Translations under genes and position numbers: made by a program
The notes under the pieces: generated by a model
Database searches by the model: none
What the model was told of the DNA's origin: nothing
The model's input: the letters and a program-made list of their open reading frames with translations, nothing else
Shown: positions 8,464 through 34,503 of the stretch, piece by piece
Numbering within the stretch: position 1 is the first letter of the stretch
Layout of the letters: every line of letters begins with the position of its first letter
From: a bacterium
GTDB taxonomy: Bacteria; Hinthialibacterota; Hinthialibacteria; Hinthialibacterales; Hinthialibacteraceae
Length of the DNA stretch: 64,000 bases
Reading direction: 5' to 3'
Assembly (NCBI GenBank): GCA_963663405.2
Contig: CAXXSM010000110.1
Location: 1 to 64,000, forward strand

Positions 8464-8506
8464 TACTAGCCTCCTCGTATTAGAAATATTGATGTAATAA
8501 AAATAC

Positions 8507-8612: not shown

Positions 8613-8743
8613 TACTAAACAAACAATATCCCCAACTTCACTATACAGAATCACAGAACAGTAATACTACTGAAAACAAATCAACACCATTCTATCATAA
8701 CAATCAAATCCACGTAAATGGTATGTTCTGTCAAACAGCGGCT

Positions 8744-13730: not shown

Positions 13731-16495
13731 TGGAATCCGCCCAATTCACCTATCGCCTTGCTGAGATTCCCGACCGCTCCTACCCTCCTTTCTTCGTAAA
13801 GGCGGGTGGGGATGTCCGGTCCGCCGTCCAGGCGGATTGCGAACATCTCCTCCGGGCGCTGGCGGAATTTCCACCTGATTCGGTCTCCCTGTCGACGCGC
13901 TATCTTTTCAATCCCTCCCATAACGGTCAGACGCCTCAGGAACGGCTGAACATCTTTCTCTCAGCTCAGGCGTACAACGAGGACTACTCGGCCGCGCTCT
14001 CTCTGTTGCTCGATCGGGGGCCTCTGCGCCGGTTTTATCCCCTGTGCAAGGTAGAATCCATGCAAATCCCGTGGGACACGTATCAGGCGGTTTGTACGAT
14101 CGCACGCCGGCAAATCCTCCTTGAACCAACCGTCACGCCGGAATTCAATCCCAAAGCTCTGCCCGCCTATCTCATGATCCAATCGTTTCAACCCAATCCG
14201 ACCAATGACGAAATGCCGTTGGACAATTTTCTTGACCGGATTGAAGAACCGGTCCTGATTGAACGGCGCTTTGAACCGGCGGATAGTTCCCGCGAGCTGG
14301 CTCTTCACACCAGGTATCTTTCTCTGTTGCAGCGCGTCAACCGGACGTGGGATGATGAGGACGTAATCGGCGATCCGATCGGTTCCAGCCACGCGGGCGA
14401 ATGGCGGATGGCTTTAAAATCCCTCCAAAAGAAAGAACCGCTCGCTGATGACTGCCGCCGCCGTCAGCAGCGGTTCCACGAAACGCTTACGCAGCCTCAT
14501 CTGCGGTTCCAGATCCGGATTTTCGCGCGATCCCAAGCCCTGGCCCGTCTGCTGGGTTCGGTGATCGCCGAATCCGCTTTCCAGGAGGGGAGCTACCGGT
14601 TGCAGGTTACGGACACGGGCGAATCGGGTTGGGAAGAAACAGCTCAGAATGTGGATTGTCGCCCTGTTCCGCCTGTCCTGGATAGCAGAGAAAGCGGGAA
14701 TAACTCCCAGCTGGAGCTGTACCGGGAATTGGAGCGGCTCAACCATCTCGCTCCAGTGGATCAGTTAACCAGCGTTTTCCGCCTGCCTCTCGCCGGGAAC
14801 GCCTCCCCCAAAACGATCCGGAAGAACACCGATCCACCGGCGGAATGTCCTGACATTATCCTGGGGATCGACGAACAGACTGCCAACAGTCAAACCAGCG
14901 AACCTTGGAATCCTGTGTACCGGGGGATTTCCATCAAGAACCTCGCCAAACATCTCTTTATCGCGGGGATGCCCGGTTCAGGGAAAACCATCGCCATCAT
15001 CAATTTGCTGCTTCAACTCAGCAAACTGAAGATCCCGTTCATTGTGTTCGAGCCGGGAAAAGCGGAATACCGGCTGCTCAAGCGGCTTAAGAATCATCCC
15101 AACGCCCAGCTGCGTCAATTGGCGCAGGAACTGCGCGTCTATACGCCGGGCAATGAACGGATCTCTCCCTGGCGCCTGAATCCACTCCAGATTCCCCCGG
15201 GGATCTCAACCTATCAACACATCGAAAACCTTTCCACCTGTTTCAAAGCGGCCATGCCCCTCAGCGCCCCTTTGCCCTCTCTTTTAGAGGAAGCGTTAGA
15301 ACGGGTATATGAACTTAATCCGGATCCGGATCATCCACCCCGGATGGCGGATCTCCATCATGCGGCTGAACGTGTGTTAGCCGCGAAGGGATACTCCGCC
15401 GAAGTCCATTCCAATATCAGAGGCGGACTAGATACACGGCTGGGCGCGCTGACCCGGCGCGCGATGGGCCGGATCTTTCAATGTCCAAATGATAATGAGG
15501 CTATCAAACAGCTGTTGGAAGGATTCTCGTTGATTGAACTCGCGGCGCTGCCGCGGGATCACGCGTGCCTGGTAACCCTATTCAGCTTAATGCTCTTGCG
15601 GGAAACGATCGCTTCCATCCCCTATACCCACGAAGGAATCCGGATCGTGATTGTGTTGGAAGAAGCGCATAATATCGTAGCCCGGACAAATCCGGCCGCC
15701 GCTTCGGAAACGAACGCCGATCCCACAGCGTTCGCCTCGGAATTTGTTTGTAACATGCTGGCCGAATTACGAGCCCACGGTGTTGCGATCGTGATCGTGG
15801 ATCAACTCCCCTCCACGGTCGCCCCGCAAGTCGTCAAAAACACCGGATCTAAACTAGCGTTTCGCCAGGTCGACACCGCCGACCGGGAAGACCTTGGCGG
15901 GGCTATGTTGTTTGGACCCCTTGAACTGGAAGAGATCGCCCGTTTACGGCCCGGTGAAGCGTTCTTCATGACCGAGAATTACTTCGGCCCCCGGCGGATT
16001 GTAACGCCGAATCTCCAAGCGGAGTTCGATCTTCCAATCCCCCCCGCGGGCGACTCCCTCCATTCGTATCTCCGTGACGAGGCCTGGTTCATCGAAACGG
16101 CGGAGGCCAGGATGACAGCGGAATTGAAGCGTCTCAAGAATGCGATGGATGAATTTGACGAGTTCCGGACACAAATCGTTCAACAAACCAAGAAACTGTT
16201 GACGGATTATACGCGAATTCTCACCCCCTCCTCCCAGGATCAGGGGAAAGGATTGAGTCAGTGTGTTCGCAAAGCCCAAACGCTTCTTACCCGTCTTACG
16301 AAAGGTTTTGAGGATTTTCAACGCGGCGCGTATCGCCCCTTGCTGGGTGAGGAGCCAGGGGAATCTCTCGACAGCGGTCTCCACTCGCTCCGAAACAACG
16401 CCATTCATCGATTTGAAACTGTGATAGAACCGGATACCCAGTCGTGTCTAGGTATCCTGCGCAATCTACTGGAAAAATCCACTATTAACGAATGA
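13727..16495 (+). CDS. HerA/FtsK-like (DUF87) P-loop ATPase
   Basis: KHLFIAGMPGSGKT, VLEEAHN, ELRAHG, IVDQLPS, VVKNT. ATGA overlap with the E1 stop gives a start at 13727. Confidence 0.88.
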   Translation: MMESAQFTYRLAEIPDRSYPPFFVKAGGDVRSAVQADCEHLLRALAEFPPDSVSLSTRYLFNPSHNGQTPQERLNIFLSAQAYNEDYSAALSLLLDRGPLRRFYPLCKVESMQIPWDTYQAVCTIARRQILLEPTVTPEFNPKALPAYLMIQSFQPNPTNDEMPLDNFLDRIEEPVLIERRFEPADSSRELALHTRYLSLLQRVNRTWDDEDVIGDPIGSSHAGEWRMALKSLQKKEPLADDCRRRQQRFHETLTQPHLRFQIRIFARSQALARLLGSVIAESAFQEGSYRLQVTDTGESGWEETAQNVDCRPVPPVLDSRESGNNSQLELYRELERLNHLAPVDQLTSVFRLPLAGNASPKTIRKNTDPPAECPDIILGIDEQTANSQTSEPWNPVYRGISIKNLAKHLFIAGMPGSGKTIAIINLLLQLSKLKIPFIVFEPGKAEYRLLKRLKNHPNAQLRQLAQELRVYTPGNERISPWRLNPLQIPPGISTYQHIENLSTCFKAAMPLSAPLPSLLEEALERVYELNPDPDHPPRMADLHHAAERVLAAKGYSAEVHSNIRGGLDTRLGALTRRAMGRIFQCPNDNEAIKQLLEGFSLIELAALPRDHACLVTLFSLMLLRETIASIPYTHEGIRIVIVLEEAHNIVARTNPAAASETNADPTAFASEFVCNMLAELRAHGVAIVIVDQLPSTVAPQVVKNTGSKLAFRQVDTADREDLGGAMLFGPLELEEIARLRPGEAFFMTENYFGPRRIVTPNLQAEFDLPIPPAGDSLHSYLRDEAWFIETAEARMTAELKRLKNAMDEFDEFRTQIVQQTKKLLTDYTRILTPSSQDQGKGLSQCVRKAQTLLTRLTKGFEDFQRGAYRPLLGEEPGESLDSGLHSLRNNAIHRFETVIEPDTQSCLGILRNLLEKSTINE

Positions 16496-19648: not shown

Positions 19649-21111
19649 TTGGATATGGAGCCCGGATTCCAACTCGATCGCTTTATCATCAAAAGACTCT
19701 TAGCCCACGGAAATTCCGCAAGCGTCTATCTCGCTAACGACCAAATCCTCGATAGCGATGTTACGATCAAAGTGGTTGACATTGGCTCCAACAGTTCTCC
19801 CAACGCCGCCATTCAGTTGCAGAGAGAACATCAGGCGTATCACCACATTCAAGACCACCGCCATGTCCTGCAAGCGTTTGATCTTCATTCCGTGACTTGG
19901 GGCGGAGCCGCGTTCCTGATTCTGTCCATGGAATACGCGGAGGGTGGAACGCTTCGGAATTGGTTGAACGAGCGCCGGGGTGATGAAGAGACCCGCTATT
20001 TTCAAGGCTTGGAATATTTCAAACAGATCTGCCAGGGAGTTGCGGCAAGTCACAACGCCGGCGTTCTCCACTTGGATCTCAAACCGGAGAATTGCCTCTG
20101 TGTGGAGGGTGTGTATAAAAGTGGGGGGACTATAGTTCCTCGGCGGGGTTTCTCAATCAACCGATGAGCCAAGCGCTGGTGAACGATGAGGCGATTTCAT
20201 CCCGCTGTTTTACGCCGGCGTATATGGCCCCGGAACAGTTTATCGCCATCGATCCCGGTGATTTGGATATCCGATCGGATCTCTATAGTCTGGGGGTGAT
20301 TTTATACGAACTCGCACATCCCCAATGCCGCCCGCCTTTCGCAGGCTCGTACGAGCGTCTTCGTGAATTACACACAAGCGTTTCTCCATTACTCTACCCC
20401 ATCGAACATCCCGATCTCGCCGCCATTATCCAGCGATGCCTGGAAAAAGATCCCGCCAAACGGTATCAACGCGTCGAAGAACTGATGCGCGATCTCGAAT
20501 GTGGATATCGTCATTCTGAAATGGAAGATCAAAGGAACGTAATGTGGCAAGACATCCTGACTCACATCGAACGAGGGCGCCTTTCCCCCGCGAGGCGCCT
20601 CTGCCAACTCATCCTTCAGGACGATCCTTCCTGGACGGACGCGCGGGAAATCCTTGACCAGATTCAAGAACGGTTTCAGCAGGCTCAATCAATCTATACC
20701 GCGATGGAACAGGGATTGGATCGGCTCAGTCTTCACGAATTGAACGCGCTGCTGAACGCCGCCGTCGAAATATTCCCTGAACATCCAGCGGGACAGACGG
20801 TTCAGATCCTGCTCGAACAAAAAACAGAGCGCTACAGGCAAGCAATGGAAGAAGGCCTTACGGCTGTGCTGCGGCATGAATGGGACGAAGCGTATTCGTG
20901 GTTTGAGAAAGCCGATCGATACAATCCAGGCGCGATCGAGATCGTGAAAGCCAAACGATTCGTCAACAACATCCAACAAACGATCGAACCTACACGCCGT
21001 CGAATCAATCTGTGTCTGGACAATGGGGATCACGATAGGGCGCTGAATTTGGCGCGAAGCGTAGACCACTATCTTGCGAAACAGATCCCCGCGCTTCCCT
21101 CCTCTCCATAA
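19649..21111 (+). CDS. Hanks-type Ser/Thr kinase with C-terminal TPR-like helices; frameshift near 20120-20130
   Basis: VTIK, MEYAEGGTL, HLDLKPEN, TPAYMAPEQ, SDLYSLGVILYEL, CLEKDPAKRY. Removing two homopolymer bases restores KVGDYS at the DFG position. Confidence 0.85.
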
Positions 21112-21333: not shown

Positions 21334-21705
21334 CTACGAAGACTCCCGAACAAACAGGAAAACCGGATCCATTCGTTCCGGACATTCGGCTACATACGCC
21401 AGGCGATTTAATTCCGCCTGGTCGAGACACTCATTTGCGTCAAGAAGGCTTGAGTCCTCTTGTTCTTCGGTTTCGTTCATCTTTCGGTGACTATCGCTTA
21501 CAATCCCGAATTCCTTCCGCAACTGTTCTTCCTGTTGGGGATTCGCTTTCGGGTAGATCGGGAAACATTCGAAGCAATTCCAGAATACGATATCCAGTTC
21601 AGCGTTGTACGCGGCTTGGAGTTCATTTCCACAAACACATCGTCTGGTAAACCGGACGCTACTTAGGCTTGATTGTTCTTCCTCAGATTTCATTGTGTTA
21701 TTCAT
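21334..21705 (-). CDS. Small hypothetical protein with CxC...CxxC
   Basis: Strong RBS AAGGAGGT. CVCG and CFEC motifs. Confidence 0.65.
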   Translation of the reverse strand: MNNTMKSEEEQSSLSSVRFTRRCVCGNELQAAYNAELDIVFWNCFECFPIYPKANPQQEEQLRKEFGIVSDSHRKMNETEEQEDSSLLDANECLDQAELNRLAYVAECPERMDPVFLFVRESS

Positions 21706-21777
21706 TTTCGTACCTCCTTACCACCAGTTGGTGGTTCTCTCCATTGCCGGAGAACCACCTTAATGAAAGCGGGATAG

Positions 21778-21877
21778 CGGGTGGCTGTGAGCGAATCCCT
21801 CGATAAATCTTTAGGCCGGAAGGCCGGCCCGCCTTGGCGGGAAAAGATTTACGTAAGGGATTTGCGTGGCCGCCCGC
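21778..21877 (+). other. Y-shaped hairpin element, copy 1 (structured RNA or ssDNA)
   Basis: Nested stems gcgggtggc/gccgcccgc, gcgaatccc/gggatttgc and taaatcttt/aaagattta, capped by two short hairpins (GGAA and CTTG loops). Confidence 0.7.
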
Positions 21878-22160
21878 GTGCAGCGAATCATGACAGCGAT
21901 ACTGCAACAGCTTGTTTTATGATTGTGGAATAAATTGGTCAAAAAAATGAAGAGATAATCTATGACTTGTAATGGTGATAAACGTTTGTTCTTTGAATGA
22001 ACGAATTAAAAGCAAATGTGAATTTTGTAGCGATTGCGATAGTCAGACAGATGATGTCTTGGAGGTTGAATGAGTAGACGATTCATTCCATTCAAGACTC
22101 CGTTGATTCTAGGCTGTGATCAAACCACGGCCATATACCAACTCGCGTAAAACGATAATA

Positions 22161-22220
22161 GCAGGGGGCGCGGGGGACGCGTCCCCCGGATTTTCCTGAG
22201 CTCGTCAGCGCGGAGCGAAA
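22161..22220. other. GC-rich inverted repeat, oriT/dso-like candidate
   Basis: GGGGGCGCGGGGGACGCGTCCCCCG hairpin in intergenic DNA at the edge of a skewed region. Function inferred only. Confidence 0.3.
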
Positions 22221-23085
22221 AACCATTTTCTCATTCAAACCAACGCAACCAACCGCGCCTCAAAATCCTGTTATCGGCTCCACAAACATTCCACAAAAAC
22301 AGACCAATTCTTTCTTCTCTCCTTGCATTCAAAATCTTGCGCAACTCACAAATCCATATTTCAATATTTTCTTCATCTTCCCCAACACAAAATCAACTCA
22401 CTTTCTCCCCATTCTAACACGCGTGATCTCACTCAACTATATCGAATTGTTTTTCCGTCTGCTGAACATCGCACCTTCATTCCCACAATCCCAACCGTCC
22501 CTTTACCAAAACCATTCTCCTCAGACAAAACCACCAATCCATCTCTGCCTATCACTATAACTTGAACTCATCCGAACTCTCGATCCCGCCAACAACCAAC
22601 GCAAGACAAAAACAAGAGAAGAAAATGAAAAGAACAAAATCCTCTATCTGTGAAATCCAAACGAAAAACTCTACTCCATTCTCAACCATTTTCTCTTCAC
22701 GCTACTCCACACAAAACCAATTCCCTTTTTACCGATCATAACAGGCTTGACATCTTCCTCTCCAAAAATCCAATAGAACTTCCGCTTGTTGAACACTCCT
22801 CGTCATCTCTGCAATCCCAACCGTTCCATTCTCAAAACCTATCGTTCCATTCTCATCAGGCAAACTCCCAGCCCGTCTCTAACCGAAAATTCAACTTGAT
22901 CTCTTCCACACTCTCGATCCTACCAACAACCAATCCATCTCGAAAACAGGAATTACACCGACAAATCCTCGATTCAATCCAAATCCCAACTATTCTCGAT
23001 CCAAATCCTCCTGACACTCACACGAAACAACAACCTGAAATAGGAAGCCAAAGAAACAACAACAAAAGAAAAAAAAGAAAGAAAT

Positions 23086-23400
23086 TCAATCCATGCAAAA
23101 CGTCATGAATTCCTGATCTCTGTACAACGAATCAAGGAGCGCAAGAGATTCTCGAAGTTGCAACCACTCTTCTTTGATCCGCTTATGTGTGTCTGTGTTA
23201 ATCCCATTGAAGGTCATTTCCATCGCCATCTTCATTTGATAGTAGGAATCGATATGTCGAACCAATGCCGGATGCCTTGCTGCGCTTCCCACCAATGACT
23301 GGGTTCTTCGTGATGTCCAATACAAATCACTCAAGTAGCGCAAGACGTCTCGGGTCTGTTCGGTGTCTTTCCATGTATTCATGGTTTTTGGGGTTTTCAT
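23086..23400 (-). CDS. Small helical hypothetical protein
   Basis: RBS GAGGT before ATG 23400 (MKTPKTMNTW...). Confidence 0.6.
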   Translation of the reverse strand: MKTPKTMNTWKDTEQTRDVLRYLSDLYWTSRRTQSLVGSAARHPALVRHIDSYYQMKMAMEMTFNGINTDTHKRIKEEWLQLRESLALLDSLYRDQEFMTFCMD

Positions 23401-23443
23401 TTTTGTTACCTCTGGAGAATGACTCTTTGGCCGTTCTTCCAAA

Positions 23444-23576
23444 ATTATCATTTTCTCATCATGGGGGGTCTTTAAGCGAATCCCTCGATAAACCTTTAGG
23501 CCCTTGGGCCGGCCCCGAAGGGGAAAAGGTTTACGTATGGGATTAGCGTGACCTCCTGTGATGAGAAAATGATAAT
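23444..23576 (+). other. Y-shaped hairpin element, copy 2
   Basis: Same 75-nt core (23476-23550) as copy 1 with compensatory changes, plus a 27-bp outer inverted repeat attatcattttctcatca.../...tgatgagaaaatgataat. Confidence 0.72.
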
Positions 23577-23926
23577 AGTCGTTTTAGGGACACGGGGCTT
23601 AAGTCGTGGAATATCAACGGGCTTCCCTGTCCGTAATTGGGGGTGGGTTTAGGACGCGCTTTCTTTTCGTTGGGGACAGGATTGAAGCGTTTGCGGATAA
23701 TCCGGTTAGGGTTTGGGATGAATGAGGACAAAAAAGATATAGATTGAGGACGATGATCCACTGGTAAGGGTCATGGATTTCAGGATTCCACGAAGGATTG
23801 GATACTTGAATCTTCCACTGCCGCGTGATGGGATTTCAGGATCGAGGCCCGGGTGATAATGGAACCATCATCCCGGTTTAAAATCGTTCCCCGTTCTCTT
23901 TATGGCCGGTCTCATCCGTATCCACG

Positions 23927-23960
23927 GCCTTATCAAGTATTGGACAATTCTTGATAAGGC
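23927..23960. terminator. Inverted repeat downstream of the pilin-like gene
   Basis: gccttatcaag-N12-cttgataaggc (perfect 11-bp arms). No clear U tract. Confidence 0.35.
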
Positions 23961-23977
23961 GTGAGCGACACCTATTG

Positions 23978-24577
23978 TCACTGGAACTCACAAAATTCAG
24001 GAGTGGAATTCTCTGGGATGGTGATGAAGAGGTCGCCTGCGCTGTTTATACCGTTTGTTGGATCGAAAATTATCTGTTTTGATTCGATACTGAAAGATGG
24101 CGTTTTTTCCATGAATGAATTGGGGCCGCGGCTGACGATTACGCATCCTTTTTGATTGCCCCCTCGGAATGTGAATTGATCGTTGAGTTCTTCTTTTGAG
24201 GAGGCGACAAGGAAATATCCGTCCTCATAGCGATCTGGGAAAGGATCGTGGAAAAAGATCTGGCCCAGGTCCTTTGATAAGGATAGGTAAAAGAAATTAT
24301 ACGCGTTAAATGCGCTTGTCCATTCAATGGAACCATCTCCCCATGTAGGAGGAGGAATAAATACGAGATCTTCAGGGTAGTGTTGATTTGTCGTATAGAA
24401 TTCAATATACCGCTGTGAGAGAACGTGACATTTCGAATGCAATTGAGCGATTTTGGCGCGGGATACAATGTGATGATAGGAAGCAATCGTTATCAGACTC
24501 AAAATCGATAGAATTGAGATCGCGATAATGAGTTCAGGAAGAGTGAAGGATGATTTACCGGCAAATAAATCACGCAT
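23978..24577 (-). CDS. Type IV pilin/pseudopilin-like protein
   Basis: SFTLPELIIAISILSIL prepilin-type N-terminus. DPF...SRGP...FDPTNGINSAGD C-terminal motif. Confidence 0.8.
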   Translation of the reverse strand: MRDLFAGKSSFTLPELIIAISILSILSLITIASYHHIVSRAKIAQLHSKCHVLSQRYIEFYTTNQHYPEDLVFIPPPTWGDGSIEWTSAFNAYNFFYLSLSKDLGQIFFHDPFPDRYEDGYFLVASSKEELNDQFTFRGGNQKGCVIVSRGPNSFMEKTPSFSIESKQIIFDPTNGINSAGDLFITIPENSTPEFCEFQ

Positions 24578-24681
24578 CTGAATGATTTCGCTAAATTATT
24601 ATACTTATCCACCCTGCGATGTATCATTTTTCACTCTATCGAATCACAGATACTTTTGTCAAGAGAGATATAACCATCCTC

Positions 24682-25438
24682 TCATTTTTTCGATCTTCTC
24701 AAGACCTGAGTCCAAGGAATGCTTCCTGACTCAGTCCACCAGACTTTCTGATTCACGAATTGGTTCCGTTTGACGCATTGGTCGCGATCAATAGTGAATG
24801 ACTCTCCGGATTGAATTTCTTTCCGATAGGATTGAGTTTGAATTTGCACCCTTCCCTCGAATACATCCAAAAACAATTTCTGATTTTCAAGCGCAATACA
24901 ATATTCCGTTCCCAACACTTGGATATCCGCAATCGATGTTCTGATACTCCATTCTGGTTCAGTATCATCCGTGTGCATATACTGCGCTCGGCCTCCTATC
25001 AATCGAATGCGCTGATTCTCTTCATGCTGAATCGTTGTATTTCGATCGAGAATTATGGCGGTCTCTTGATTCAGTTGCGCATACATTTGATTGTTCAGAG
25101 TGGCGAGTACGCTAATGGACAGGTAATTTGAATTCATTGGCGCCGGCGATCTGTTCTTTGTCATCGATATGAATAACTCCTTGTCCGTGTATTATCTTCA
25201 TTCTTAGACTTGATTGTGGCGCATAGAAGCAATAAATAGTAATCGCAAAAAGAATGAAGATCGAAACGGACACTGTAATGGGCGCCGTTCGCCATGAGAA
25301 TCGCGGTTTCGACTCAATAGTATGAATGGAACGCAGAATTCTGAACTCCAAATTCTGTGTTGGGATCAGAGATTGTATTTCATTTGAAACTTCATCCATC
25401 AAAGAATCAACGATGGAATCGTCTATGTTTTTATTCAT
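24682..25438 (-). CDS. FecR-like anti-sigma factor, split by a frameshift near 25120-25140
   Basis: The N-part has a single TM helix. The C-part has IQVLGTEY...LDVFEGRVQ. Overlaps the ECF sigma stop. Confidence 0.75.
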
Positions 25439-26018
25439 CGGAATAACTCCATTTTTGATGAAAAAGGGTTTTCAATTTTGAGCGCGCGCGCCGCAGACGA
25501 CTATTCACAGCCTCAAAATGGATCGAAAGAATGCTTGCGATTTCTTCTCTTGGAATTTGTTCGATATAGTATAACGTTAAAATTTCCCGGTCTTTTCTCG
25601 ACAACCGGAAAAATATTTGTAGGGCTAAATAATTTTTCTCCTTCTCATCGAGTCTTTCGCACGGAGTCGTAACCGGTTCCGCGTCATTTCCTTTACGGCG
25701 AAATATCCGGATAATGCGCTCCCGCCGGATATGGTTGATACTCAAATGACGCGCAATTTGGAACAGAAGAGCGCGAACATTGAAGATGGTCTTTCCTTTC
25801 AACACATAATTGGTCCACAGCGACAGAAACGAGTCATGCACTATATCATCCACTTCTTCAATATTCCCAGTTTGTGCAACCACATATTTCCGCATTGAAT
25901 CCTGGTACAAACCGATTATTTTCCGGAACGCATATTCAGATCCTGCGCCTAACAGCTTTTCCAGGCTCAAATGTGATGATTGAATAGTTTCCTCATGAAA
26001 TTTCGGATTCGTTTCCAT
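25431..26018 (-). CDS. ECF sigma factor
   Basis: DDIVHDSFLSLW, LFQIARHLSINHIRR, LSRKDREILTLYY...EEIASIL...VNSRLRRAR. Confidence 0.9.
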   Translation of the reverse strand: METNPKFHEETIQSSHLSLEKLLGAGSEYAFRKIIGLYQDSMRKYVVAQTGNIEEVDDIVHDSFLSLWTNYVLKGKTIFNVRALLFQIARHLSINHIRRERIIRIFRRKGNDAEPVTTPCERLDEKEKNYLALQIFFRLSRKDREILTLYYIEQIPREEIASILSIHFEAVNSRLRRARSKLKTLFHQKWSYSDE

Positions 26019-26111
26019 TCTAAAGACCAATATGAGTAACGCGATCAATAAAGGGCACTTCGACTATTAGTTTTATTCGTATATAAAAACGATTACACCA
26101 ATCCATATTGA

Positions 26112-26140
26112 ATAGTCGACTTCCAATCAAAATTTGGTCA
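26112..26140 (-). promoter_or_regulatory. ECF-type promoter TGACC-N16-TCGACTAT (likely autoregulatory)
   Basis: Identical elements and spacing to 27619-27647. Directly upstream of the ECF gene. Confidence 0.65.
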
Positions 26141-26146
26141 AAAAAA

Positions 26147-27580
26147 TTAATGAATTTTCCAATTCTCAACCGCGCTGTTCACTGAAGTCGGTGTGGGCGC
26201 CGGTATTATGTTTGGGTCATTGAAGTAAATTCGGTTTAAGAAACTGGATTGATTTTCAGTCACAAAAATGACCTCTGCGGCTCTATTGCCATCGGTGTCA
26301 CCCAATATCGGTGTACCCTTGAGCGTTCCTGGAATATAGTAAGGAGGGATTCCGGCGGTCGATAAATCTTCCGTAAAAATATATAGAATGAATCGCTCTC
26401 CTACTTTTTGTACGGTTGGGATTTCAGCAAATGAATTCCATTGCATATTGGCCGCTCCAGAAAACGGTTCGGCGTTCAAGACAGTGAAAACCCGGACACG
26501 ATTCTGGGATGGATTCATCCAGTTGAGATTCGAACCGCTTGTGAAAAAAACGATTTCCGATTCCACATCTTCATCCCAGTTGCCAACCGAAAGAGTCAGG
26601 CAATCTTCCTGTTGCAGTACAAATTCGCGAATAAACCGGCCGTCAAAAAGATCCAACAGGAAAACCGACCGCGGAATACTCGCATCGGAATTTTGATTAA
26701 GCGCGGTTCCCGCGATCACAATGGGATCGCCGCTATTGGATTGACCGATGGCTAAACGAGAGATAAACAGATCAGACCGAATCGGCTGCTCCCACAGCAA
26801 AACAGGCTCATCCGATTCTTGGCTGAACAGATAGGCGTATATAGAGGTAGAAGATGTAGATTGAGAGAGATCGGGTAAATTGGTCGCCGCTAGAATCAGA
26901 TACGATTCCTTGAACAGATCATCTTGAGTGATCGCCATAACCGCCGGTGAAATGGGAGCGGGAAAATCGATTGTTGTTTCATGGTTTTTTCGTGATATAT
27001 CATACATTCTCACAAAGCTATTAGCGTTCTCCGTATTCTCGTAAGTAATCAATTCGAGAGAACCATCGTAATTGATATCCACTGCCGTAAAAATCTTCTC
27101 GTTTGCAGTACCATCTTTCCCAGGAATTTGAAAGAGATGACTTTCATTTAAGACGCTATAGGCTCGATGTTCTGTTTTACCGTTGAAATAGGCCGAGTAT
27201 AAGACGTCTTTTAAATGATCGTTATCAACATCAACCAAAGCGCTTAGGTAAATCGATGGTTTTGGGGAGCCAATTATTGGGATCGTATCAATGGATTGGA
27301 TTGTAAAATCAATAAAATAAATGTTATCACGATCGACTGATTGACCGATCACTTCTTGAATCCCATCTTGATCCAAATCGGCGCACAATAGATTTTCAAG
27401 GACTGATGGGATTCGAATGGAGTCAACATTCAAGAAATTCTGTATGTTCGTTTCAGTGAAGGGAAATTCTAAAAATGCGCTGGATCTCCTGTTGGCAAAA
27501 GGATGATCCCACTCACTCTCCGGATTCGCAGGAATTGGAGTAGTGAGTAAACCCATCAATAAAACAAAGAAATAAATCAT
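26147..27580 (-). CDS. Secreted FG-GAP/VCBS-repeat beta-propeller protein
   Basis: Signal peptide. DLDQDGIQEV, DVDNDHLKDV, DINYDGSLEL and DTDGNRAAEV repeats. Pro/Thr linker and short tail. Confidence 0.8.
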   Translation of the reverse strand: MIYFFVLLMGLLTTPIPANPESEWDHPFANRRSSAFLEFPFTETNIQNFLNVDSIRIPSVLENLLCADLDQDGIQEVIGQSVDRDNIYFIDFTIQSIDTIPIIGSPKPSIYLSALVDVDNDHLKDVLYSAYFNGKTEHRAYSVLNESHLFQIPGKDGTANEKIFTAVDINYDGSLELITYENTENANSFVRMYDISRKNHETTIDFPAPISPAVMAITQDDLFKESYLILAATNLPDLSQSTSSTSIYAYLFSQESDEPVLLWEQPIRSDLFISRLAIGQSNSGDPIVIAGTALNQNSDASIPRSVFLLDLFDGRFIREFVLQQEDCLTLSVGNWDEDVESEIVFFTSGSNLNWMNPSQNRVRVFTVLNAEPFSGAANMQWNSFAEIPTVQKVGERFILYIFTEDLSTAGIPPYYIPGTLKGTPILGDTDGNRAAEVIFVTENQSSFLNRIYFNDPNIIPAPTPTSVNSAVENWKIH

Positions 27581-27618
27581 TCGGATTCAATATCGAATTC
27601 AAAATCGTTTTCTTTAGT

Positions 27619-27647
27619 ATAGTCGATTTTTCATACTCACTTGGTCA
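27619..27647 (-). promoter_or_regulatory. ECF-type promoter TGACC-N16-TCGACTAT
   Basis: Second exact match of both boxes, about 40 bp upstream of ATG 27580. Confidence 0.65.
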
Positions 27648-27927
27648 TCAAAATGCTTTTTTCATCCAGAAAAAAAAGATCGAAGAAACGCCTTCATCCT
27701 CCAAAATGCCTTTCATAACACTTTACTAGTGATATGAAAAAAGACTATAGTTTTTTGCATTCGGCTGGTTTATCTCAAAAAAACGCGCGGATTCGTAGTA
27801 TCGATACCCCGAAATTGCTCATTGGATTGAATAGGTGAAAGAGCGAGTATTGAATTTCCTTGGCAATTATTCATTTGTTCAATAATTTTATAGAATAATT
27901 CATCCTATTGAGAAATTGGAATGTTAA

Positions 27928-29487
27928 ATGAACTCACTAAATCGATTGACTTGTCTTCTGTTCTTGTTTCTATTCAGCACAATCTCTTATTCACACACGG
28001 CTAACCAATGGCTCACGCAATGGGGAAATCCCCAAAGGACTCGGTATTTTTCGTCGGACCATATACCTTCTCAAAAAGCCACCCGATTGACAAAAAGAAC
28101 AATTCAATTGCCATTCCCAATTGAAGAATTTTTCTATACGGCGGACGTTACTGGAGATGGAAAAGCCGAGTTCGTCTCGTTGATTCACGATCCACCTTCG
28201 ATTTTGATCGTGGATCTTACGAATGAATCATACGAACAGATTCCATTAGAAAAGAGTCCTCATCTGACAGAAGAGAATGCTGAAATCGAATATGCGATTA
28301 ATCAACTTGTGGATTATGATGACGAACCTGGATTGGAGATTTTCTGCGAAGTCCTGCCAGTTGTTCCCGGATCGTATTATGATGGCAAACCGACATTTTA
28401 CCAGATTGTTTCTCCCCGTTTGAAGAAGGTCATCCATAGGTTTTCTGGTATTACCATTGAAGACCGGAGTGGGGATGGAATGTGGAGCGGGTGCGAAAGC
28501 GCTTCCATTTTATTCAAGGACCAAACGGATCAATGGAAAATGGCCGCATACATGTCTGCCGGGCATGAGGATTACAAACCAAGATCGATCAATATATACA
28601 ACATTGAAAGCGGTCAGCTGGAGGCGCAATTTCATACGGCCACGAGCACACGGATGATTTCATTGCTTAAAACGGAAAGCGACGAAATATTGATGACGCT
28701 TTGGTCTCACACCCCTGATAACTGGATACGGATCAACGGAGAGATTCAATACGATGAAGATGGAAGCGCGATTAATGTAAGTGAGATTTTGGATGAAAAG
28801 GTCGTAACCGATAAAGAAGGGTATAGTATCTGTTTGAACTATGATGGCTCGCTGAACGAAGACGCGCTCCAATTACGTTGGTATTCAAAAAATGCGGATT
28901 ACTGTTCCATCAATTCTGCAATTATTCAAGACTCTCAGAATAGAAACCTTACCGTAGATTTATGGCATGTCATTCGCGCATGGGATCCGCTATCCCCTGG
29001 AGGAATACGCATTTTTGATTTGGAGACAGGAGAGACAATTAATGAATTTCAAGCCGATGAGGGATTATCGTTTGAACACATTATCGCTCCACCCCATAGC
29101 GATAGGATTTACACTCGAATTTACGAACTTCCTCATCTAGTCCAATACAATATCCAAAACGGCGAAAATAAAATTGTAGAATTATCCGATAATTCCATCG
29201 TTCAACTCGAACTGATTGGGACGGCGGATATGGATGGCGGCGGTGAGTATGATATTGTTGTTATGAGTAATGCCTCGGATGAGTTTGAATTGATTGTCCT
29301 GGATACAGATCTGAACGAAAAAACCTCCATTCCAATTCCTCCATCCTATAAAACCGCTGTTTTTGGGGACGCGAATCAGAATGGATACCCCGAAGTCTAT
29401 TTGATCGATCAAAATACCAACCAGAGTCTCACCATTATTGAATACGGCAATCCTTCTTCTTTTTTCCCGTTTAACGATTACAAATAA
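27928..29487 (+). CDS. Secreted FG-GAP/VCBS-repeat beta-propeller protein
   Basis: Signal peptide, WLTQWGNPQRT, ADVTGDGKAEF, DMDGGGEYDIV, GDANQNGYPEV. Confidence 0.8.
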   Translation: MNSLNRLTCLLFLFLFSTISYSHTANQWLTQWGNPQRTRYFSSDHIPSQKATRLTKRTIQLPFPIEEFFYTADVTGDGKAEFVSLIHDPPSILIVDLTNESYEQIPLEKSPHLTEENAEIEYAINQLVDYDDEPGLEIFCEVLPVVPGSYYDGKPTFYQIVSPRLKKVIHRFSGITIEDRSGDGMWSGCESASILFKDQTDQWKMAAYMSAGHEDYKPRSINIYNIESGQLEAQFHTATSTRMISLLKTESDEILMTLWSHTPDNWIRINGEIQYDEDGSAINVSEILDEKVVTDKEGYSICLNYDGSLNEDALQLRWYSKNADYCSINSAIIQDSQNRNLTVDLWHVIRAWDPLSPGGIRIFDLETGETINEFQADEGLSFEHIIAPPHSDRIYTRIYELPHLVQYNIQNGENKIVELSDNSIVQLELIGTADMDGGGEYDIVVMSNASDEFELIVLDTDLNEKTSIPIPPSYKTAVFGDANQNGYPEVYLIDQNTNQSLTIIEYGNPSSFFPFNDYK

Positions 29488-29500
29488 GGGCTTATGGATT

Positions 29501-30430
29501 TCAGTCTTTCATGCGGGATAGTATGCTTGAGTCTTCCAATGCGAACTGGCGGCCTAGGACCGACACTCGATCGGCAAGGGAACCATCATCCTGGACCCAG
29601 ATAGAAGCGCCCAATCCCCGGTTGAGAATCCGTTGTTCGGTCGTGAGCCAGACGAAAGAGTCGTCCGGAATTTGTTGTGCGAGATTATGTATTTGTTTCA
29701 ACCGGCGGTCAGAATTACAAACCACTAACAAAACAAATCCGTTCAATGGCGCCTTGAAAAAACGCTCATACCGTTTGTATCCTTGGGAATGAAAGTAGAG
29801 CTGGTACCGATAGAATTTGTGATGAATCGATCTTGAGTTGCCATTTTCGCTGGCAAGAGGTTCCGTGGAACGATCGACTTCTAAGAAAAACAGGTACGTT
29901 TTCCCCAAGCCGGAATTAGTGATTGCCATGACCGCGTCAGGGATGAAACTGGCTTTCATATCGCCCATTCCATCCACAGGCACTTGATCGTAGATGAAAG
30001 GTTTTCCATTTTGCGTAGGCGGTAAAAACGGGGATGTTTGAGAGAGGAATTCAATGGAAATCGCTGAATTTCTTTGTAGGATTTGCGCGGCGATCTGGAT
30101 CCAATTCACGCTCAGTTGATGTTCGATACTCACCGGACTTTTCCACCCGATCTTCTCATACGAATGTTCTTCTTCCAACGCGCCTTTTTCATGCAGGCAT
30201 TGAACGCCTTTCTGGGAGAGTGAATAAATGAATTCCGGCCGTCCTGACTGCCCTCGCACAACTCGCTTTCTTTCGATCGCGTAATCCATGCAAAACAGTT
30301 TCGCCATCCGCCTGCGGACAGTCCGAACATGGGCGCCTTCCAGAACGGCGATTTGCTTGACCGTCAAAAGCCGGTATTCCGCAATCAAGTACGCTAATTT
30401 CAGGTCTTTCGAATCGATTTTTTGAGTCAT
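29501..30430 (-). CDS. Replication-relaxation (Replic_Relax) family protein
   Basis: N-terminal wHTH (LLTVKQI...VRRRMAKL...YSLSQKG), IEHQLSVN, IPDAV, FFLEVDRSTE, KFYRY. Confidence 0.82.
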   Translation of the reverse strand: MTQKIDSKDLKLAYLIAEYRLLTVKQIAVLEGAHVRTVRRRMAKLFCMDYAIERKRVVRGQSGRPEFIYSLSQKGVQCLHEKGALEEEHSYEKIGWKSPVSIEHQLSVNWIQIAAQILQRNSAISIEFLSQTSPFLPPTQNGKPFIYDQVPVDGMGDMKASFIPDAVMAITNSGLGKTYLFFLEVDRSTEPLASENGNSRSIHHKFYRYQLYFHSQGYKRYERFFKAPLNGFVLLVVCNSDRRLKQIHNLAQQIPDDSFVWLTTEQRILNRGLGASIWVQDDGSLADRVSVLGRQFALEDSSILSRMKD

Positions 30431-30647
30431 GATGTTTCCTCCATCTTTATTTATAAAAAGAAGCGGGAAGAAATGACCAGATATTTCAATTGAGCAAATC
30501 CACACGAAGGAATTCTCTATTGCTGAGGATTGGATTGGAAATCTATGATAAGCGAGATCAGCAAAACCTGTTTGTAGCAAATTTGATTCATTTAAAAACC
30601 GAAACATTTAAATACAGGTTCATCACTACTTTATAGAAACAACACCC

Positions 30648-31246: not shown

Positions 31247-33229
31247 ATGGAGGTTTATGAATTGTGCCGGAAGCTGAAACCCGTGTTAGGCGATCGAGCG
31301 GATCGATTGTGGTTGGCCTATCTGGCCGAGGATAATCGCGGGAAACAGGAATTGGAGATCGCATTACAGTTGTTAGCCGCTCAACATCTGGGCGTAAACG
31401 TTCAGTTTCCTGATGTTCATCTATCCGCTCCACCACAGGATAAATCTCATGGAAAGTATAACCTCGGTTCGGTGGTCTATTGCGATCGGCCGCTTCATCC
31501 ATTTGGGCTCCGGGAAGATGAACTGATTCAACATACCGCGATCTTTGGCCGGTCGGGAGCAGGCAAAACCAATACGGTGTTTGTCCTTCTGGAGAGTTTG
31601 CTGGATCAAAAAAAGCCGTTTCTTTTGTTCGACTGGAAGCGAAATTATCGAGATCTTTTATCCGTACGGAAAGATGAAATCTTGGTTTATACAGTTGGAG
31701 GACAGACCGTTCCCTTTGCGTTCAATCCATTGATTCCTCCGGAAGGAACCAGCGCGGCGGTCTGGCTCAAAAAAATGATCGAAATCATCGCTCACTCCTA
31801 CTACTTGGGAGAGGGCGTCATGTATCTTCTCCAGGAAGCGATCGATGCGGTGTATCACTCCTTCAATGTGTACAAAGGAAATCCTCCTAAATACCCCACC
31901 TTTAAAGATGTTCTGGAATGGCTCGAAAAACATCCAGTCAAAGGACGTAAAGCGCAATGGATGGATTCCGCTTTGCGGGGTGTTCGATCGATCTGTTTTG
32001 GGCATATGGGGAACGTGATGAATACCAGCGTTCAATCGAACGTTGGCGATCTATTGACCAGGAACGTAATCCTGGAATTGGATAGTCTGACGAACGCGGA
32101 TAAAACATTCACGATCGAGTCGCTCTTGCTGTGGATTCATCATTACCGTTTGACACAGCCGGATCGAGAGACCTTCAAACACGCCATGATCATCGAGGAA
32201 GCGCATCACATTTTACTGAAACGTTCCGGCGCCGGCAGCGGCGGGGAAGCGATCACGGACACCATTCTCCGTGAAATCCGGGAGTTGGGAGAAGGGATCG
32301 TGTTGGTGGATCAGCATCCGAGTTTGATCTCGATTCCCGCCATGGGCAACACCTACGCCACGATCTGCATGAATCTGAAACACCGGTCCGATGTCAACGC
32401 GGCGGGTGGGGCGATGCTGATTGACAATGAAGAGCGGGAATTATTGGGGCGGCTGCCAATTGGACGGGCGGTCGTCAAACTGCAGGGCCGCTGGCTGCAA
32501 CCGTTTGAGATCTCGATTCCCCATCGAAAAATCCCTAAAGGATCTGTGAACGATACCGCTTTGGCGCAGCACATGGTAGAACGGAATATCCTCAATCCTT
32601 ATGCGGAATATGATGAGGTCGTACATGGTACTGAGAACCCTATCACTATCCAATTGAATGAGAAAGAAAAAACCTTTTTGATCGATGTGTTTCAGAATCC
32701 ACTGTTTGGCGCGGTGGAGCGGTACCGGCATCTTCATTTGAGCCGACGAAAAGGAAACGCGATTCGGGAATCGTGTATCGAAAAAGATTTGATCGAGCCG
32801 GAAGAGATCCGGACACACAGCGGGAAAACAGTTCTGCTGGGATTAACGCCAAAGGGGAGAGCCTGTCTACGAAATATGAATTATGACGTTCCGAATAAAT
32901 CTCGTTGGGGCAGTCTGGATCATGAATTTTGGAAAGAAAAAGCCGCGCAACAATTCGTTCTTTTGGGTTGGACTGTCAGGAAAGAAGAATCCGGTCATGG
33001 ATACACAGATCTTGTGGCGGAAAAGAACGGCCAAAAAATTGCGGTGGAGATTGAAACGGGAAAATCAAATTGGAGGGAAAATATCCGGAAGAATCTAGCG
33101 GGAGATTATCGAGGGATTTTCATCCTAACTACCAAACCAGAAACGCAGAATCAGATTCTAAAAGTGATCGATGAAATGGAAACCAAGATCCCCATCAAAG
33201 TGAAACAAGTCCAAGATTTCGTGAAATAA
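31247..33229 (+). CDS. HerA/VirD4-like (DUF87) ATPase with C-terminal wHTH and PD-(D/E)xK-like domain
   Basis: HTAIFGRSGAGKT, IIEEAHH, REIRELG, VDQHPS. C-terminal DLVAEKNGQKIAVEIETG. Confidence 0.88.
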   Translation: MEVYELCRKLKPVLGDRADRLWLAYLAEDNRGKQELEIALQLLAAQHLGVNVQFPDVHLSAPPQDKSHGKYNLGSVVYCDRPLHPFGLREDELIQHTAIFGRSGAGKTNTVFVLLESLLDQKKPFLLFDWKRNYRDLLSVRKDEILVYTVGGQTVPFAFNPLIPPEGTSAAVWLKKMIEIIAHSYYLGEGVMYLLQEAIDAVYHSFNVYKGNPPKYPTFKDVLEWLEKHPVKGRKAQWMDSALRGVRSICFGHMGNVMNTSVQSNVGDLLTRNVILELDSLTNADKTFTIESLLLWIHHYRLTQPDRETFKHAMIIEEAHHILLKRSGAGSGGEAITDTILREIRELGEGIVLVDQHPSLISIPAMGNTYATICMNLKHRSDVNAAGGAMLIDNEERELLGRLPIGRAVVKLQGRWLQPFEISIPHRKIPKGSVNDTALAQHMVERNILNPYAEYDEVVHGTENPITIQLNEKEKTFLIDVFQNPLFGAVERYRHLHLSRRKGNAIRESCIEKDLIEPEEIRTHSGKTVLLGLTPKGRACLRNMNYDVPNKSRWGSLDHEFWKEKAAQQFVLLGWTVRKEESGHGYTDLVAEKNGQKIAVEIETGKSNWRENIRKNLAGDYRGIFILTTKPETQNQILKVIDEMETKIPIKVKQVQDFVK

Positions 33230-33437: not shown

Positions 33438-34322
33438 TCAATCAACAACCATGGGCTGTGATTTCTTCCCCTCTTTTGTGAGAGATTCAATCTGAGTAAT
33501 GATGGTGGATGCGCATCGGCGGATCTTCTCCAGACGATTGAGCAGTTTGTTTTTATCGCCTTCCCACAGGCGGATGTAATCGGACGACGCTTGGATAGCC
33601 TGTACGCTGAACCGCTCACAGACAACACAGGCGACAGCTTCGGCCTCCAATTCACGCAGCGAACGGGAATCGTTGGTTGTTTGTCTTTGATGGAGAATTT
33701 CATGGGCGAATTCATGCGCGAGCACAGCGAAGGTTTCCGCGGAATCCATTCCCTTTTTAATCGTTATGGATCCTTTTTTGGAATAGCCAAACGCCCGGCC
33801 TGTGTACCCATAATCGAGCTGGATTCCATTTTTACGAACAGCTTGCTCCAGCATGGAAAGATATTGTCTCGCTTCACCTTGTGCTCGAAACGGTTCGGGT
33901 AATTTTGAGCCGTGTGTCTGCGCTAGATCGAAAACACAGACCACGCGGAACGAATATATTGTGTCTTCTTCAAATGGCTCTTTCGAGTCTTCTTGCTTTG
34001 TTTCTTTTGACTGTATTGAAGCTGTTTTCTTTTTGTAGCAAACCGGAGCGAGGATGCGGATGGCTTTCTCGCCGCGTTTAATGGATCGATGGAGACGTTT
34101 CCAGGTTTGAAATCCGGCGACTTGCGTGGCTTCAGGGCGTTGGGCCAAAATGAGAAATTGATTGGAGGTGGAGTACGTATGGAAAAGCGACATGGTTTTC
34201 AGGTATCGAGTCATTTCTGCTGAGTATCCTTTTTCCAGCTGCTCCCCCAATTTGGTGATGGTCTCCTGGATGATTTTCCGGCTTTGTTGGATCCGATCTT
34301 TAGTATTTTGGTTTGGTTTCAT
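33438..34322 (-). CDS. ardC: ArdC-like ssDNA-binding/anti-restriction protein with metallopeptidase domain
   Basis: YSTSNQFLILAQRPEATQVAGFQTWKRL...KRGEKAIRILAP, VFDLAQT, AHEFAH, ELEAEAVA. RBS GGAGG before ATG 34322. Confidence 0.85.
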   Translation of the reverse strand: MKPNQNTKDRIQQSRKIIQETITKLGEQLEKGYSAEMTRYLKTMSLFHTYSTSNQFLILAQRPEATQVAGFQTWKRLHRSIKRGEKAIRILAPVCYKKKTASIQSKETKQEDSKEPFEEDTIYSFRVVCVFDLAQTHGSKLPEPFRAQGEARQYLSMLEQAVRKNGIQLDYGYTGRAFGYSKKGSITIKKGMDSAETFAVLAHEFAHEILHQRQTTNDSRSLRELEAEAVACVVCERFSVQAIQASSDYIRLWEGDKNKLLNRLEKIRRCASTIITQIESLTKEGKKSQPMVVD

Positions 34323-34503
34323 TTGTATCCTCCGGCTAACTGGCCACCCTTGGACCAGTTGGCTGGAGGATCTCATCGAAGTAAGTAAAAGCATGAAATA
34401 ATTCAGAGAATCCAGCTGGATTATGTCCACGAATAATTTTCTATATGAAAGATAATTCCTCAAAAAAAGGGGATTTCTCCCCTTCAATTCATCGCAATCA
34501 ATC

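Follow-up and report, generated by a model that had tools for sequence, protein, structure and literature searches.

What could be the role of a hairpin that a bacterial genome carries twice in close succession, each time just upstream of a small gene? The question is raised by a stretch of 64,000 nucleotides (nt), here called the window (positions 1 to 64,000 of contig CAXXSM010000110.1 in assembly GCA_963663405.2, from a member of the phylum Hinthialibacterota), which is contig C110 of an 8.4-Mb genome in 170 contigs that is 82% complete. A first-pass annotation, made from the letters alone, had placed two copies of a Y-shaped hairpin at 21791-21865 and 23476-23550, and had offered for them a role on single-stranded DNA (ssDNA), a relaxase target or an antisense RNA, of a family that it could not name. 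The two copies are members of a family with a total of at least 153 copies in at least 110 loci, in genomes and metagenomes, which has a structure under selection and a fixed orientation among the genes of mobile islands; as for its function, we tentatively favour a signal that serves on the displaced strand as a single-strand initiation site or promoter.

Both positions are borne out by a 27-nt pattern common to the two copies, which has only two matches in the whole window, at 21791-21817 and 23476-23502 (shuffles predict 0.00), and a direct repeat (21779-21830 and 23464-23515) links the copies to one another. The module, as the unit is called here, has a core of about 80 nt in both cases, lying on the plus strand at 21787-21869 in copy 1 and at 23472-23551 in copy 2, and it folds in the same way in both: a stem P2 of 9 base pairs (bp; GCGAATCCC paired with GGGATT.GC), an internal loop in which TCGA faces CGTAA or CGTAT and CG is able to pair with CG inside, a stem P3, also of 9 bp (TAAAYCTTT paired with AAAGRTTTA), and two short terminal hairpins, P4 and P5. 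Around this core stands an outer stem, of 9 bp in copy 1 (whole module 21778-21878, plus strand) and of 27 bp in copy 2 (23444-23470 with 23550-23576, 89% complementary; whole module 23444-23576, plus strand). The fold with its unpaired TCGA and CGTA, the lengths of the outer stems, the compensatory change of a T-A to a C-G pair in P3 and the exchange of the terminal loops (GGAA/CTTG in one copy, CTTG/GAA in the other) had all been described beforehand, and they are found as described. Copy 2 is also detected as an inverted repeat, and the covariance model presented below scores 93.4 bits on copy 1 and 99 bits on copy 2. With RNA parameters the plus strand folds at -57.5 kcal/mol in copy 1 (z-score -5.7) and at -74.7 kcal/mol in copy 2 (z-score -9.5), and the minus strand at -47.8 and -64.8 kcal/mol, respectively, the plus strand being about 10 kcal/mol ahead in either copy; the fold z-scores of 101-nt and 141-nt stretches run from -4.8 to -9.5. 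A further motif of the first-pass annotation, GTGACC-N17-GATAAT, is present in copy 2 (23548-23576), but it is not a feature of the family, whose flanks show no enrichment for it.

Each copy stands, as had been claimed, upstream of a small gene on the minus strand, and a Shine-Dalgarno sequence precedes both open reading frames (ORFs). The first gene (21334-21705, called as an ORF with a ribosome-binding site, RBS) encodes 123 amino acids (aa) with a CxC...CxxC motif and has its start codon 82 nt from the core of copy 1; its homologues are found at five other module loci, on the minus strand in all of them. The second (23086-23403) encodes 105 aa from an ATG preceded by AGAGG, with its start 69 nt from the core of copy 2, the longest ORF reaching to 23451. 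Neither has a match in Pfam, NCBIfam or PHROG. Between copy 1 and the RBS of the gene on its left, DNA folding gives an accessory hairpin, HP0 (GGTGGTTCTC-loop-GAGAACCACC, 21730-21759), and many homologous loci have a counterpart (GGCGGTTCGC...GCGAACCGCC or another sequence) in the equivalent position; by motif count, hairpins of this type accompany about 40-46% of 146 modules, and a strand bias in their folding was looked for and none was found.

The relatives of the two copies carry the case for the structure. The covariance model, R1, was built from seven sequences with the structure set by hand; in the first seven sequences 92.9% of the cells are paired, six pairs have changed on both sides, and none of 500 shuffles does as well. 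Among 82 distinct metagenomic copies, 98.0% of the cells hold standard pairs, compared with 28-55% when the partners are slid by one to three columns, changes on both sides occur in 17 of the 28 pairs (159 cells), and none of 500 shuffles reaches any of the five measures used. The alignment of these 82 copies was fitted to the covariance model, which favours the structure, but the conclusion is safe because of the slid controls and because many types of pair are present (a single pair of P3 is CG in 26 copies, UA in 24 and GC in 20). The structure is, therefore, under selection. Outside the pairs, conservation is seen in TCGA and CG(A)TAA, next to P2 and P3, in an A ahead of P4, in the GA that separates P4 from P5 and in a G that follows P5. 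Some members have one hairpin in place of P4 and P5, and thus the invariant part consists of P2, the internal loop and P3, not of the Y shape, which holds for both copies in the window as had been noted but is dispensable in the family.

The same alignment indicates which strand folds. The third pair of P2 (positions 7-138) is G-U in 66 sequences, A-U in nine, G-C in five and unpaired or otherwise composed in one (n = 81); on the minus strand the same pair is an A.C mismatch in those 66 sequences, and since the pair is legitimate only when read on the plus strand, the plus strand is the folding strand. The core together with the outer stem, P1, folds better on this strand in 54 of the 63 copies compared when RNA parameters are used, and in 61 of the 63 when DNA parameters are. 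The first-pass annotation had taken the plus strand, the template of the adjoining genes, to be the folding one, and the conserved G-U pair, the folding energies and the covariation of the family agree with it; the call rests on pair 7-138, the loops and the unpaired positions rich in purines.

How widely is the module spread, and could it be no more than a dispersed repeat? In a BLAST search of the 2.6-kb block against 40 relatives, the match in other genera is limited to the hairpin core, and it is thus the hairpin, and not its flanks, that is conserved. R1 has matches in seven of 35 genomes of the window's phylum. A collection of species-representative genomes holds 56 stretches that fit the IUPAC pattern exactly, 38 of them with an R1 match; the remaining 18, which lack one, were taken as chance. 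Most of the 38 belong to Planctomycetota (Phycisphaerae, Pirellulales, Planctomycetales), and the other carriers are Desulfobacteraceae, an isolate of Desulfocarbo indianensis with four modules on its contigs, Latescibacterota, Acidobacteria and one metagenome-assembled genome of Gammaproteobacteria. The pattern scan of metagenomes gave at least 119 stretches, and R1 identifies at least 88 further copies at E<=1e-6 in 81 metagenome contigs. Among 151 genomes sampled from the order of one Pirellulales carrier, nine have an R1 match, and the distribution is patchy. Viral contigs gave one pattern match, and a blastn search of the PLSDB plasmids with a three-module stretch gave none.

Within the source genome itself, the 2.5-kb block that holds the two hairpins recurs on contigs C141 and C55 (91-93% identity), and a fourth, divergent copy is found on contig C81 (41.5 bits); in all there are seven module sites, six of them in three paralogous islands. 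The two copies initially reported are therefore two within the window, but not genome-wide, where three paralogous loci carry both copies each. The core of copy 2 is identical across the three loci despite a divergence of 7-9% in the flanks.

A selfish or neutral repeat, comparable with repetitive extragenic palindromic (REP) sequences or miniature inverted-repeat transposable elements (MITEs), would account for a palindromic unit repeated in intergenic DNA, as would a terminator or a stabiliser of the messenger RNA (mRNA) of the minus-strand operon, the minus-strand version of the module folding well too. However, a closed Phycisphaerae chromosome of 5.4 Mb has exactly three copies, in a single cluster beside the relaxase gene, which does not correspond to a dispersed repeat of the REP or MITE type, and the other genomes have one to seven copies, all within such islands. 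The orientation relative to the genes is fixed, the conserved G.T becomes an A.C mismatch in the mRNA strand, and no T-run follows the module on either strand. All this makes a repeat or stabiliser of this kind extremely unlikely; a MITE or REP family, named by the annotation as counter-evidence to its own proposal, does not agree with copies that are clustered and in one orientation.

The models of Rfam 15 have no match on the two copies of the window, neither at the gathering score nor at E<=10, and none at E<=0.1 on six further loci holding 17 modules; the first-pass annotation, likewise, had not been able to match the element to a family, and the covariance-model search gave homologues with covariation. 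The element was not found in the literature, which was consulted for related systems and, as regards the motif itself, for the name 'Rhodopirellula-1' only. This candidate motif, listed for Planctomycetes and Proteobacteria, marked as ambiguous as an RNA and given no Rfam accession by Weinberg et al. (2010; PMC2864571), resembles the module in its host phyla; the comparison is with that listing, and an earlier sighting of the same element is therefore possible. Relative to Rfam, the fold, the conserved loop, the host elements and the phyla are new, whereas the general kind of element, an ssDNA signal or a hairpin of an origin of transfer (oriT), is known.

The genes around the modules follow a recurrent order. 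To compare them, the 110 loci, with their 153 modules, were oriented with the module on the plus strand, and six-frame ORFs were searched with profiles of recurrent neighbour clusters; the redundant loci L032, L035 and L037 were left out of the counts, and L016, L017, L019 and L036 also out of the neighbour-profile counts. All 30 matches to the Replic_Relax relaxase lie to the right of the modules on the minus strand, and the relaxase is found there in 17 of the 30 loci that have at least 4 kb of flank; the link with this gene, suspected earlier, is thus confirmed on one side and one strand. Past the 3' end of the relaxase gene and a block of locus-specific direct repeats, the modules follow at 230-2700 nt. 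To their left follow the other genes, so that the order on the minus strand is relaxase gene, modules, c0, small genes, ArdC-like gene and further genes. The cluster c0, a protein of about 200 aa, has 48 of 48 matches on the minus strand (34 to the left of modules, 11 between them and three to the right) and is present in 15 of the 24 loci with enough flank; it has no match in Pfam, NCBIfam or PHROG, its AlphaFold model is mostly helical with a predicted local distance difference test (pLDDT) score of 71, and a Foldseek search of this model against the PDB gave no match at E<=0.001. The clusters c2, c5 and c7, which are small proteins, c6, and the ArdC-like c3 are, with few exceptions, encoded on the minus strand, and the majority lie to the left, ArdC-like genes being downstream of modules in nine of the 11 loci that have one. 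Since the neighbouring genes are on the minus strand, the folded plus strand is their template strand. On the plus strand, to the right of the module, are found c4, in eight loci, and a Cdc6-like gene, in six. Cluster c4 is itself a protein of 150-190 aa similar to HNH or Holliday-junction-resolvase proteins (PHROG 9019), encoded on the same strand as the module and in the interval that separates it from the relaxase gene, with examples in islands of the Desulfobacterota type (L215, 9570-10049; L081, L080, L051, L056 and L060).

The placement of the modules is equally regular. They stand about 40-90 nt upstream of genes oriented with one another, the ArdC-like ones included; the start codons of c0 are 37-120 nt from the module in most loci, and between the two there is usually a hairpin of the HP0 type just ahead of the RBS. 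Distance from the relaxase gene does not alter this: in the Desulfocarbo contig a module is 5.3 kb from the relaxase and still 33 nt upstream of a minus-strand gene, and copy 1 of the window, 1.7 kb from copy 2, keeps its place ahead of its own gene. There is one copy in 79 loci, two in 21, three in eight and four in two, always in a single orientation, and the gaps between copies cluster near 75 nt, with no gene between, and at 220-420 nt, with one small gene between. The module and its adjoining gene move together as blocks of homology, and the majority of the genes that come later in the operon lack one.

The terminal loops, which were classed in 141 distinct modules, add a chemical indication. 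In P5 the most frequent is a C-GNA-G triloop (54 modules, C-GAA-G in 36 of them), followed by GNRA (20) and GNNA (seven) tetraloops; in P4 the corresponding figures are 14, 30 and 19, and a TNCG tetraloop is found in neither. The P5 of the module (CCC-GAA-GGG) includes the sequence CCGAAGG. Hairpins of the types GCGNAGC and GCGNNAGC are described as extraordinarily stable when made of DNA and considerably less so when made of RNA, mini-hairpin DNA is described as a poor ligand of single-strand-binding protein (SSB), and such mini-hairpins are cited at ssDNA initiation sites, namely the oric of phage G4, the ssiA of RSF1010 (CCGAAGG) and the hairpin promoters of phage N4 with GGA or GAA triloops, all according to a review of 2026 (PMC13037366); their stability is reported to depend on the closing pair (PMC3201870).

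The orientation rule, the placement before genes far from the relaxase, the multiplicity of copies, the conservation of the core and the chemistry of the loops are what makes the reading as a single-strand initiation or promoter signal fit. According to this reading, the element would be a structural signal, specific to one strand, that belongs to a family of integrated islands, mobilizable or conjugative, with a MOB_C (Replic_Relax) relaxase. The plus strand, as the template of co-oriented early genes, would be exposed when the island is displaced or transferred in single-stranded form; the compact hairpins, with their SSB-resistant C-GNA-G and C-GNNA-G caps, would then recruit a polymerase, either the RNA polymerase of the host or a primase, and an RNA would be started leftwards on the plus strand, which could serve as primer for the complementary strand, as messenger for the c0, small-protein and ArdC-like genes, or as both. 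The wider statement, that the active form is the plus strand as ssDNA, is probably correct. The structure and its selection, the folding strand, the association with these islands, the orientation and the types of loop are established by the data; what we infer is DNA rather than RNA as the active form, the recruitment of a polymerase and the direction of synthesis. A core kept across phyla, with repeats that are specific to each locus, fits a universal host enzyme as the reader.

Seen in this way, the module could, tentatively, be a functional analogue of the single-strand origins (ssos), the single-strand initiation (ssi) sites and Frpo, built on an unrelated fold. With the Frpo and ssi elements of the leading regions of F and ColIb-P9 it shares repeated strand-specific hairpins upstream of co-oriented genes, anti-restriction genes included, a folded template strand and residence in a conjugative or mobilizable element, and multiple dispersed or tandem copies occur among Frpo and ssi repeats and paired ssos as well. 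It differs from them in having no -35/-10 mimic, in its own fold with a conserved internal loop and two mini-hairpins, in its length (about 80-135 nt, Frpo having roughly 300 nt) and in the relaxase beside it, which is of the MOB_C type and not MOB_F or MOB_P. The arrangement with the folded strand as template is the one reported for leading-region genes and Frpo (PMC11541004). With ssoA, ssoU, the G4 oric, RSF1010 ssiA and the N4 promoters the module has in common an orientation-specific folded ssDNA, the C-GNA-G and C-GNNA-G caps and, as in ssiA, CCGAAGG. Ssos sit upstream of the double-strand origin, and the module likewise precedes, on the 5' side along the folded strand, a region that bears repeats and resembles an origin. 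Two or more copies may occur together. In contrast, the module does not share the conserved RSB and CS-6 elements of ssoA: a CS-6-like TAGCGT occurs in copy 2 only and not in a loop but in a stem flank, for which the consensus of the family is CTGCGTG. No gene for a primase of the RepB' type or for a polymerase of the N4 type was seen near the modules, and the hosts are integrated islands in Planctomycetota, Desulfobacterota and others, the likeness to sso and ssi elements being one of structure and loops.

Several observations weigh against this reading. Hexamers similar to a -10 box occur in six of 135 right flanks and in nine of 135 on the reverse complement, and there is no -35/-10-like pair in the stems; in the absence of such enrichment, a mimic of a sigma-70 promoter, as in Frpo, is unsupported. 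Thus, of the ssDNA role proposed by the first-pass annotation, the general idea remains the best reading, strengthened by the orientation of the genes and by loops of the DNA mini-hairpin type, whereas its promoter-mimic version does not stand. If, furthermore, the nick were made beside the repeats on the plus strand, the modules and their genes would reach the recipient last, unlike those of classical leading regions; some tandem copies are only 3-5 nt apart with no gene between, which is odd for promoters; outside pair 7-138 the wobble pairs are balanced (G.T 19, A.C 20); and GNRA loops suit RNA as well.

An alternative explanation starts from the relaxase. In the window, the Replic_Relax gene lies at 29501-30607 on the minus strand (Pfam PF13814, 9.1e-20); this Pfam family has been equated with the MOB_C relaxases (PMC5357655), for which a restriction-endonuclease fold is given (PMC3424549; PMC12857230). 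The module would then be the large inverted repeat of an oriT of the MOB_C type, the winged-helix domain of the relaxase binding the direct repeats, the nuclease domain nicking in or beside the hairpin in its extruded or single-stranded form, and the hairpin serving also for termination. Besides the adjacent relaxase gene on a constant side and strand, this is favoured by the repeats themselves. In most of the loci inspected, the stretch that separates the relaxase gene (3' end) from the module nearest to it contains a box rich in AT (TATATATTCGAYTTT-like) and then three to six direct repeats of 10-12 nt, with a spacing of about 22-30 nt and a sequence that is specific to the locus, so that the order is conserved inverted repeat, 100-800 nt, AT-rich box and repeats, and 3' end of the relaxase gene. 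In the window, these elements occupy 23737-23842, with the box at about 23737-23760, GGATTTCAGGAT at 23775-23786 and 23831-23842, and the related GGATTGGATA between the two; the idea that the box is a 'collapsed' module was dropped, as it is the first of the locus-specific repeats. Work by Francia and Clewell in 2002 reportedly placed the nic site of the plasmid pAD1 within a large inverted repeat conserved between related plasmids. The layout parallels that of the pAD1 oriT as reviewed, where the MOB_C protein TraX is stated to bind five direct repeats 70-120 bp from nic (PMC12857230); in the oriTs of pAD1 and pAM373, as at the module loci, a few hundred bp contain a relaxase gene, a series of short direct repeats particular to the locus and a large inverted repeat that is conserved, which is a likeness of layout. 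In the window's phylum the relaxase is found in six of the seven module-bearing genomes and in three of the 28 others, genomes that are kin and not independent of one another.

A last point in favour of the oriT is that the loci abruptly cease to be homologous 8-10 nt past the foot of the hairpin, on its 3' side, after GCCGGAGCG; a nick at this distance is typical of HUH relaxases. Yet a conserved module in shuffled DNA is expected to show such a break too, breaks exist also at the left edge, and the breaks were consequently rejected as proof of site-specific cutting. Other features are equally difficult to reconcile with an oriT: 31 of the 110 loci have two to four direct copies, and tandem nick sites should delete the DNA between them; unlike what is known from pAD1 and pAM373, modules number up to four per island, and the distal ones are kilobases (up to 5.3 kb) from the relaxase and the repeats, yet just upstream of genes; and the core hardly varies from phylum to phylum, while identity among the relaxases is only 33-42%. 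We consider the oriT quite possible but, on balance, unlikely.

Could the active form be RNA after all? A structured RNA of the plus strand would be either a regulator that acts in antisense on the 5' regions of genes downstream or, where a plus-strand gene such as the HNH-like c4 or the Cdc6-like one lies to the right, as happens in some loci, a 5' leader. The pattern of covariation, the conserved G-U, the purine-rich unpaired positions and the GNRA loops are typical of functional RNAs, and STAXI (RF01728), a comparable motif that forms structured units in tandem in the neighbourhood of genes for anti-restriction, ssb and integrase, was regarded as more probably an RNA in the report that lists it (PMC2864571). 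STAXI differs, however, in being a repeated pseudoknot with UUCG loops in Enterobacteria, and the Rfam models have no match on the modules. No conserved promoter is seen to the left and no terminator to the right, the flank consensus being blank beyond P1 and without a T-run; in most loci a plus-strand transcript would continue into the repeats and then into the relaxase gene at its 3' end; unrelated genes stand behind the same module, which therefore is not a gene-specific antisense RNA; and C-GNA-G triloops dominate, with TNCG absent. An RNA thus appears unlikely to us.

The alternation of modules and genes suggests yet another possibility, that of a folded-ssDNA recombination site bounding small gene cassettes, in an integron-like array served by the adjacent nuclease-fold protein with its repeat-flanked site. 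The Replic_Relax protein would dock on the direct repeats, cut and rejoin the DNA at the foot of the hairpin (after GCCGGAGCG) and so shuffle units of module and small gene, probably with anti-defence functions, from one mobile island to another, without a tyrosine recombinase or an HUH enzyme. Module and small gene do alternate, all units pointing the same way and the gaps measuring 220-420 nt, the genes found behind modules vary, the protein gene and the direct repeats are at one end of the array, and the junctions at GCCGGAGCG are sharp. The attC sites of integrons, which fold on the bottom (template) strand, resemble the module as imperfect palindromes with a variable terminal structure between small co-oriented genes. 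On the other hand, the modules have no RYYYAAC/GTTRRRY boxes, that is, no R/L box consensus, and the corresponding pairs of P3 vary, as seen in the pair counts given above; there is no integron integrase (IntI) nearby, the only tyrosine recombinase being 24 kb away; the arrays are short, with no more than four modules; the modules are linked to the downstream and not to the upstream gene, the other boundary of the block being fuzzy; and the genes further along the operon mostly go without a module. Both the cassette array and the mechanism of shuffling are, for these reasons, very unlikely, and the single-strand initiation or promoter signal is still the reading that we prefer.

The island in which the window copies reside has some peculiarities of its own. 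In the window copy only, the direct repeats are separated from the relaxase gene by a cargo of 5.6 kb (23877-29491, delimited by BLAST breakpoints against C141 and C55), in which Pfam models identify a pseudopilin, a FecR-like protein, an extracytoplasmic function (ECF) sigma factor and two FG-GAP proteins. The cargo is an insertion, because the module block of C55 and C141 borders directly on the relaxase region, and the relaxase gene thus appears, from this comparison of sequences, to have adjoined the repeats before the cargo was inserted. At the left edge of the cargo there is a near-perfect palindrome of 16 nt (23927-23960). The window copy of the relaxase gene is the only full-length one in this genome, the others (C55, C4, C86 and C141) being fragmented or having in-frame stops, with the neighbouring hairpin modules intact. 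Beyond the relaxase, Pfam and NCBIfam models give a DNA translocase similar to HerA, FtsK and TraG (31247-33229, plus strand), an anti-restriction-like gene with an ArdC-N domain and an M78 peptidase (33438-34628, minus strand), a CobT/MoxR pair and a Cdc6/Orc-like ATPase, and the probable right end of the island is a tyrosine integrase (47305-48411, plus strand; Pfam Phage_integrase, 5.3e-32). The translocase is one of two paralogous genes for HerA/FtsK-like ATPases in the island region (13511-16495 and 31247-33229), and it is the second that has weak matches to CedD, VirB4 and TraD models.

Between module 1 and small gene 2 lies a non-coding tract of about 850 nt (22240-23085) that is nearly free of G on the plus strand, with a GC skew of -0.5 to -0.66, is kept in all three paralogous loci and contains no convincing ORF; it could be a stretch of unstructured ssDNA or a stretch similar to a Rho utilization (rut) site. 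Tracts poor in G and of like sign are found beside modules in 14 other loci, and tracts of opposite sign in none, but as a general feature to the right of modules the tract was rejected, being present in only five of 83 loci. To the right of module 1 there is also a plus-strand ORF of 29 codons with a GGAGG RBS (22070-22159), possibly a small gene, followed within the region 22070-22200 by a GC-rich hairpin with a T-run on the plus strand (22171-22188). To the left of module 1, a Ser/Thr protein kinase is split over two overlapping plus-strand ORFs (19649-20167 and 20164-21111), with the N- and C-terminal halves of the Pkinase domain, a frameshift that is either real or an assembly error. Further away, an aptamer of a cyclic di-GMP riboswitch (c-di-GMP-I-GGC, RF03167, 72 bits; 8534-8614, minus strand) lies directly upstream of a gene of 1093 aa (5278-8559, minus strand) with UspA1-type repeats and a Peptidase_S74 chaperone domain.

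The ssDNA start signals known so far come from a few plasmids and phages of proteobacteria and firmicutes and have been defined mostly by likeness of sequence. The element presented here is, in contrast, a large family backed by covariation, with a compact and unrelated fold, found in islands of little-studied phyla beside MOB_C, the least understood relaxase family. If it were the hairpin of a MOB_C oriT, it would provide the first broad comparative picture of such an oriT, and in either case the covariance model can be used for annotating these islands. If, as we tentatively favour, it is a signal for initiation on ssDNA, it would offer a portable model of how establishment genes are switched on without a mimic of a sigma-70 promoter, and it would mark arrays of early or anti-defence genes in environmental bacteria.

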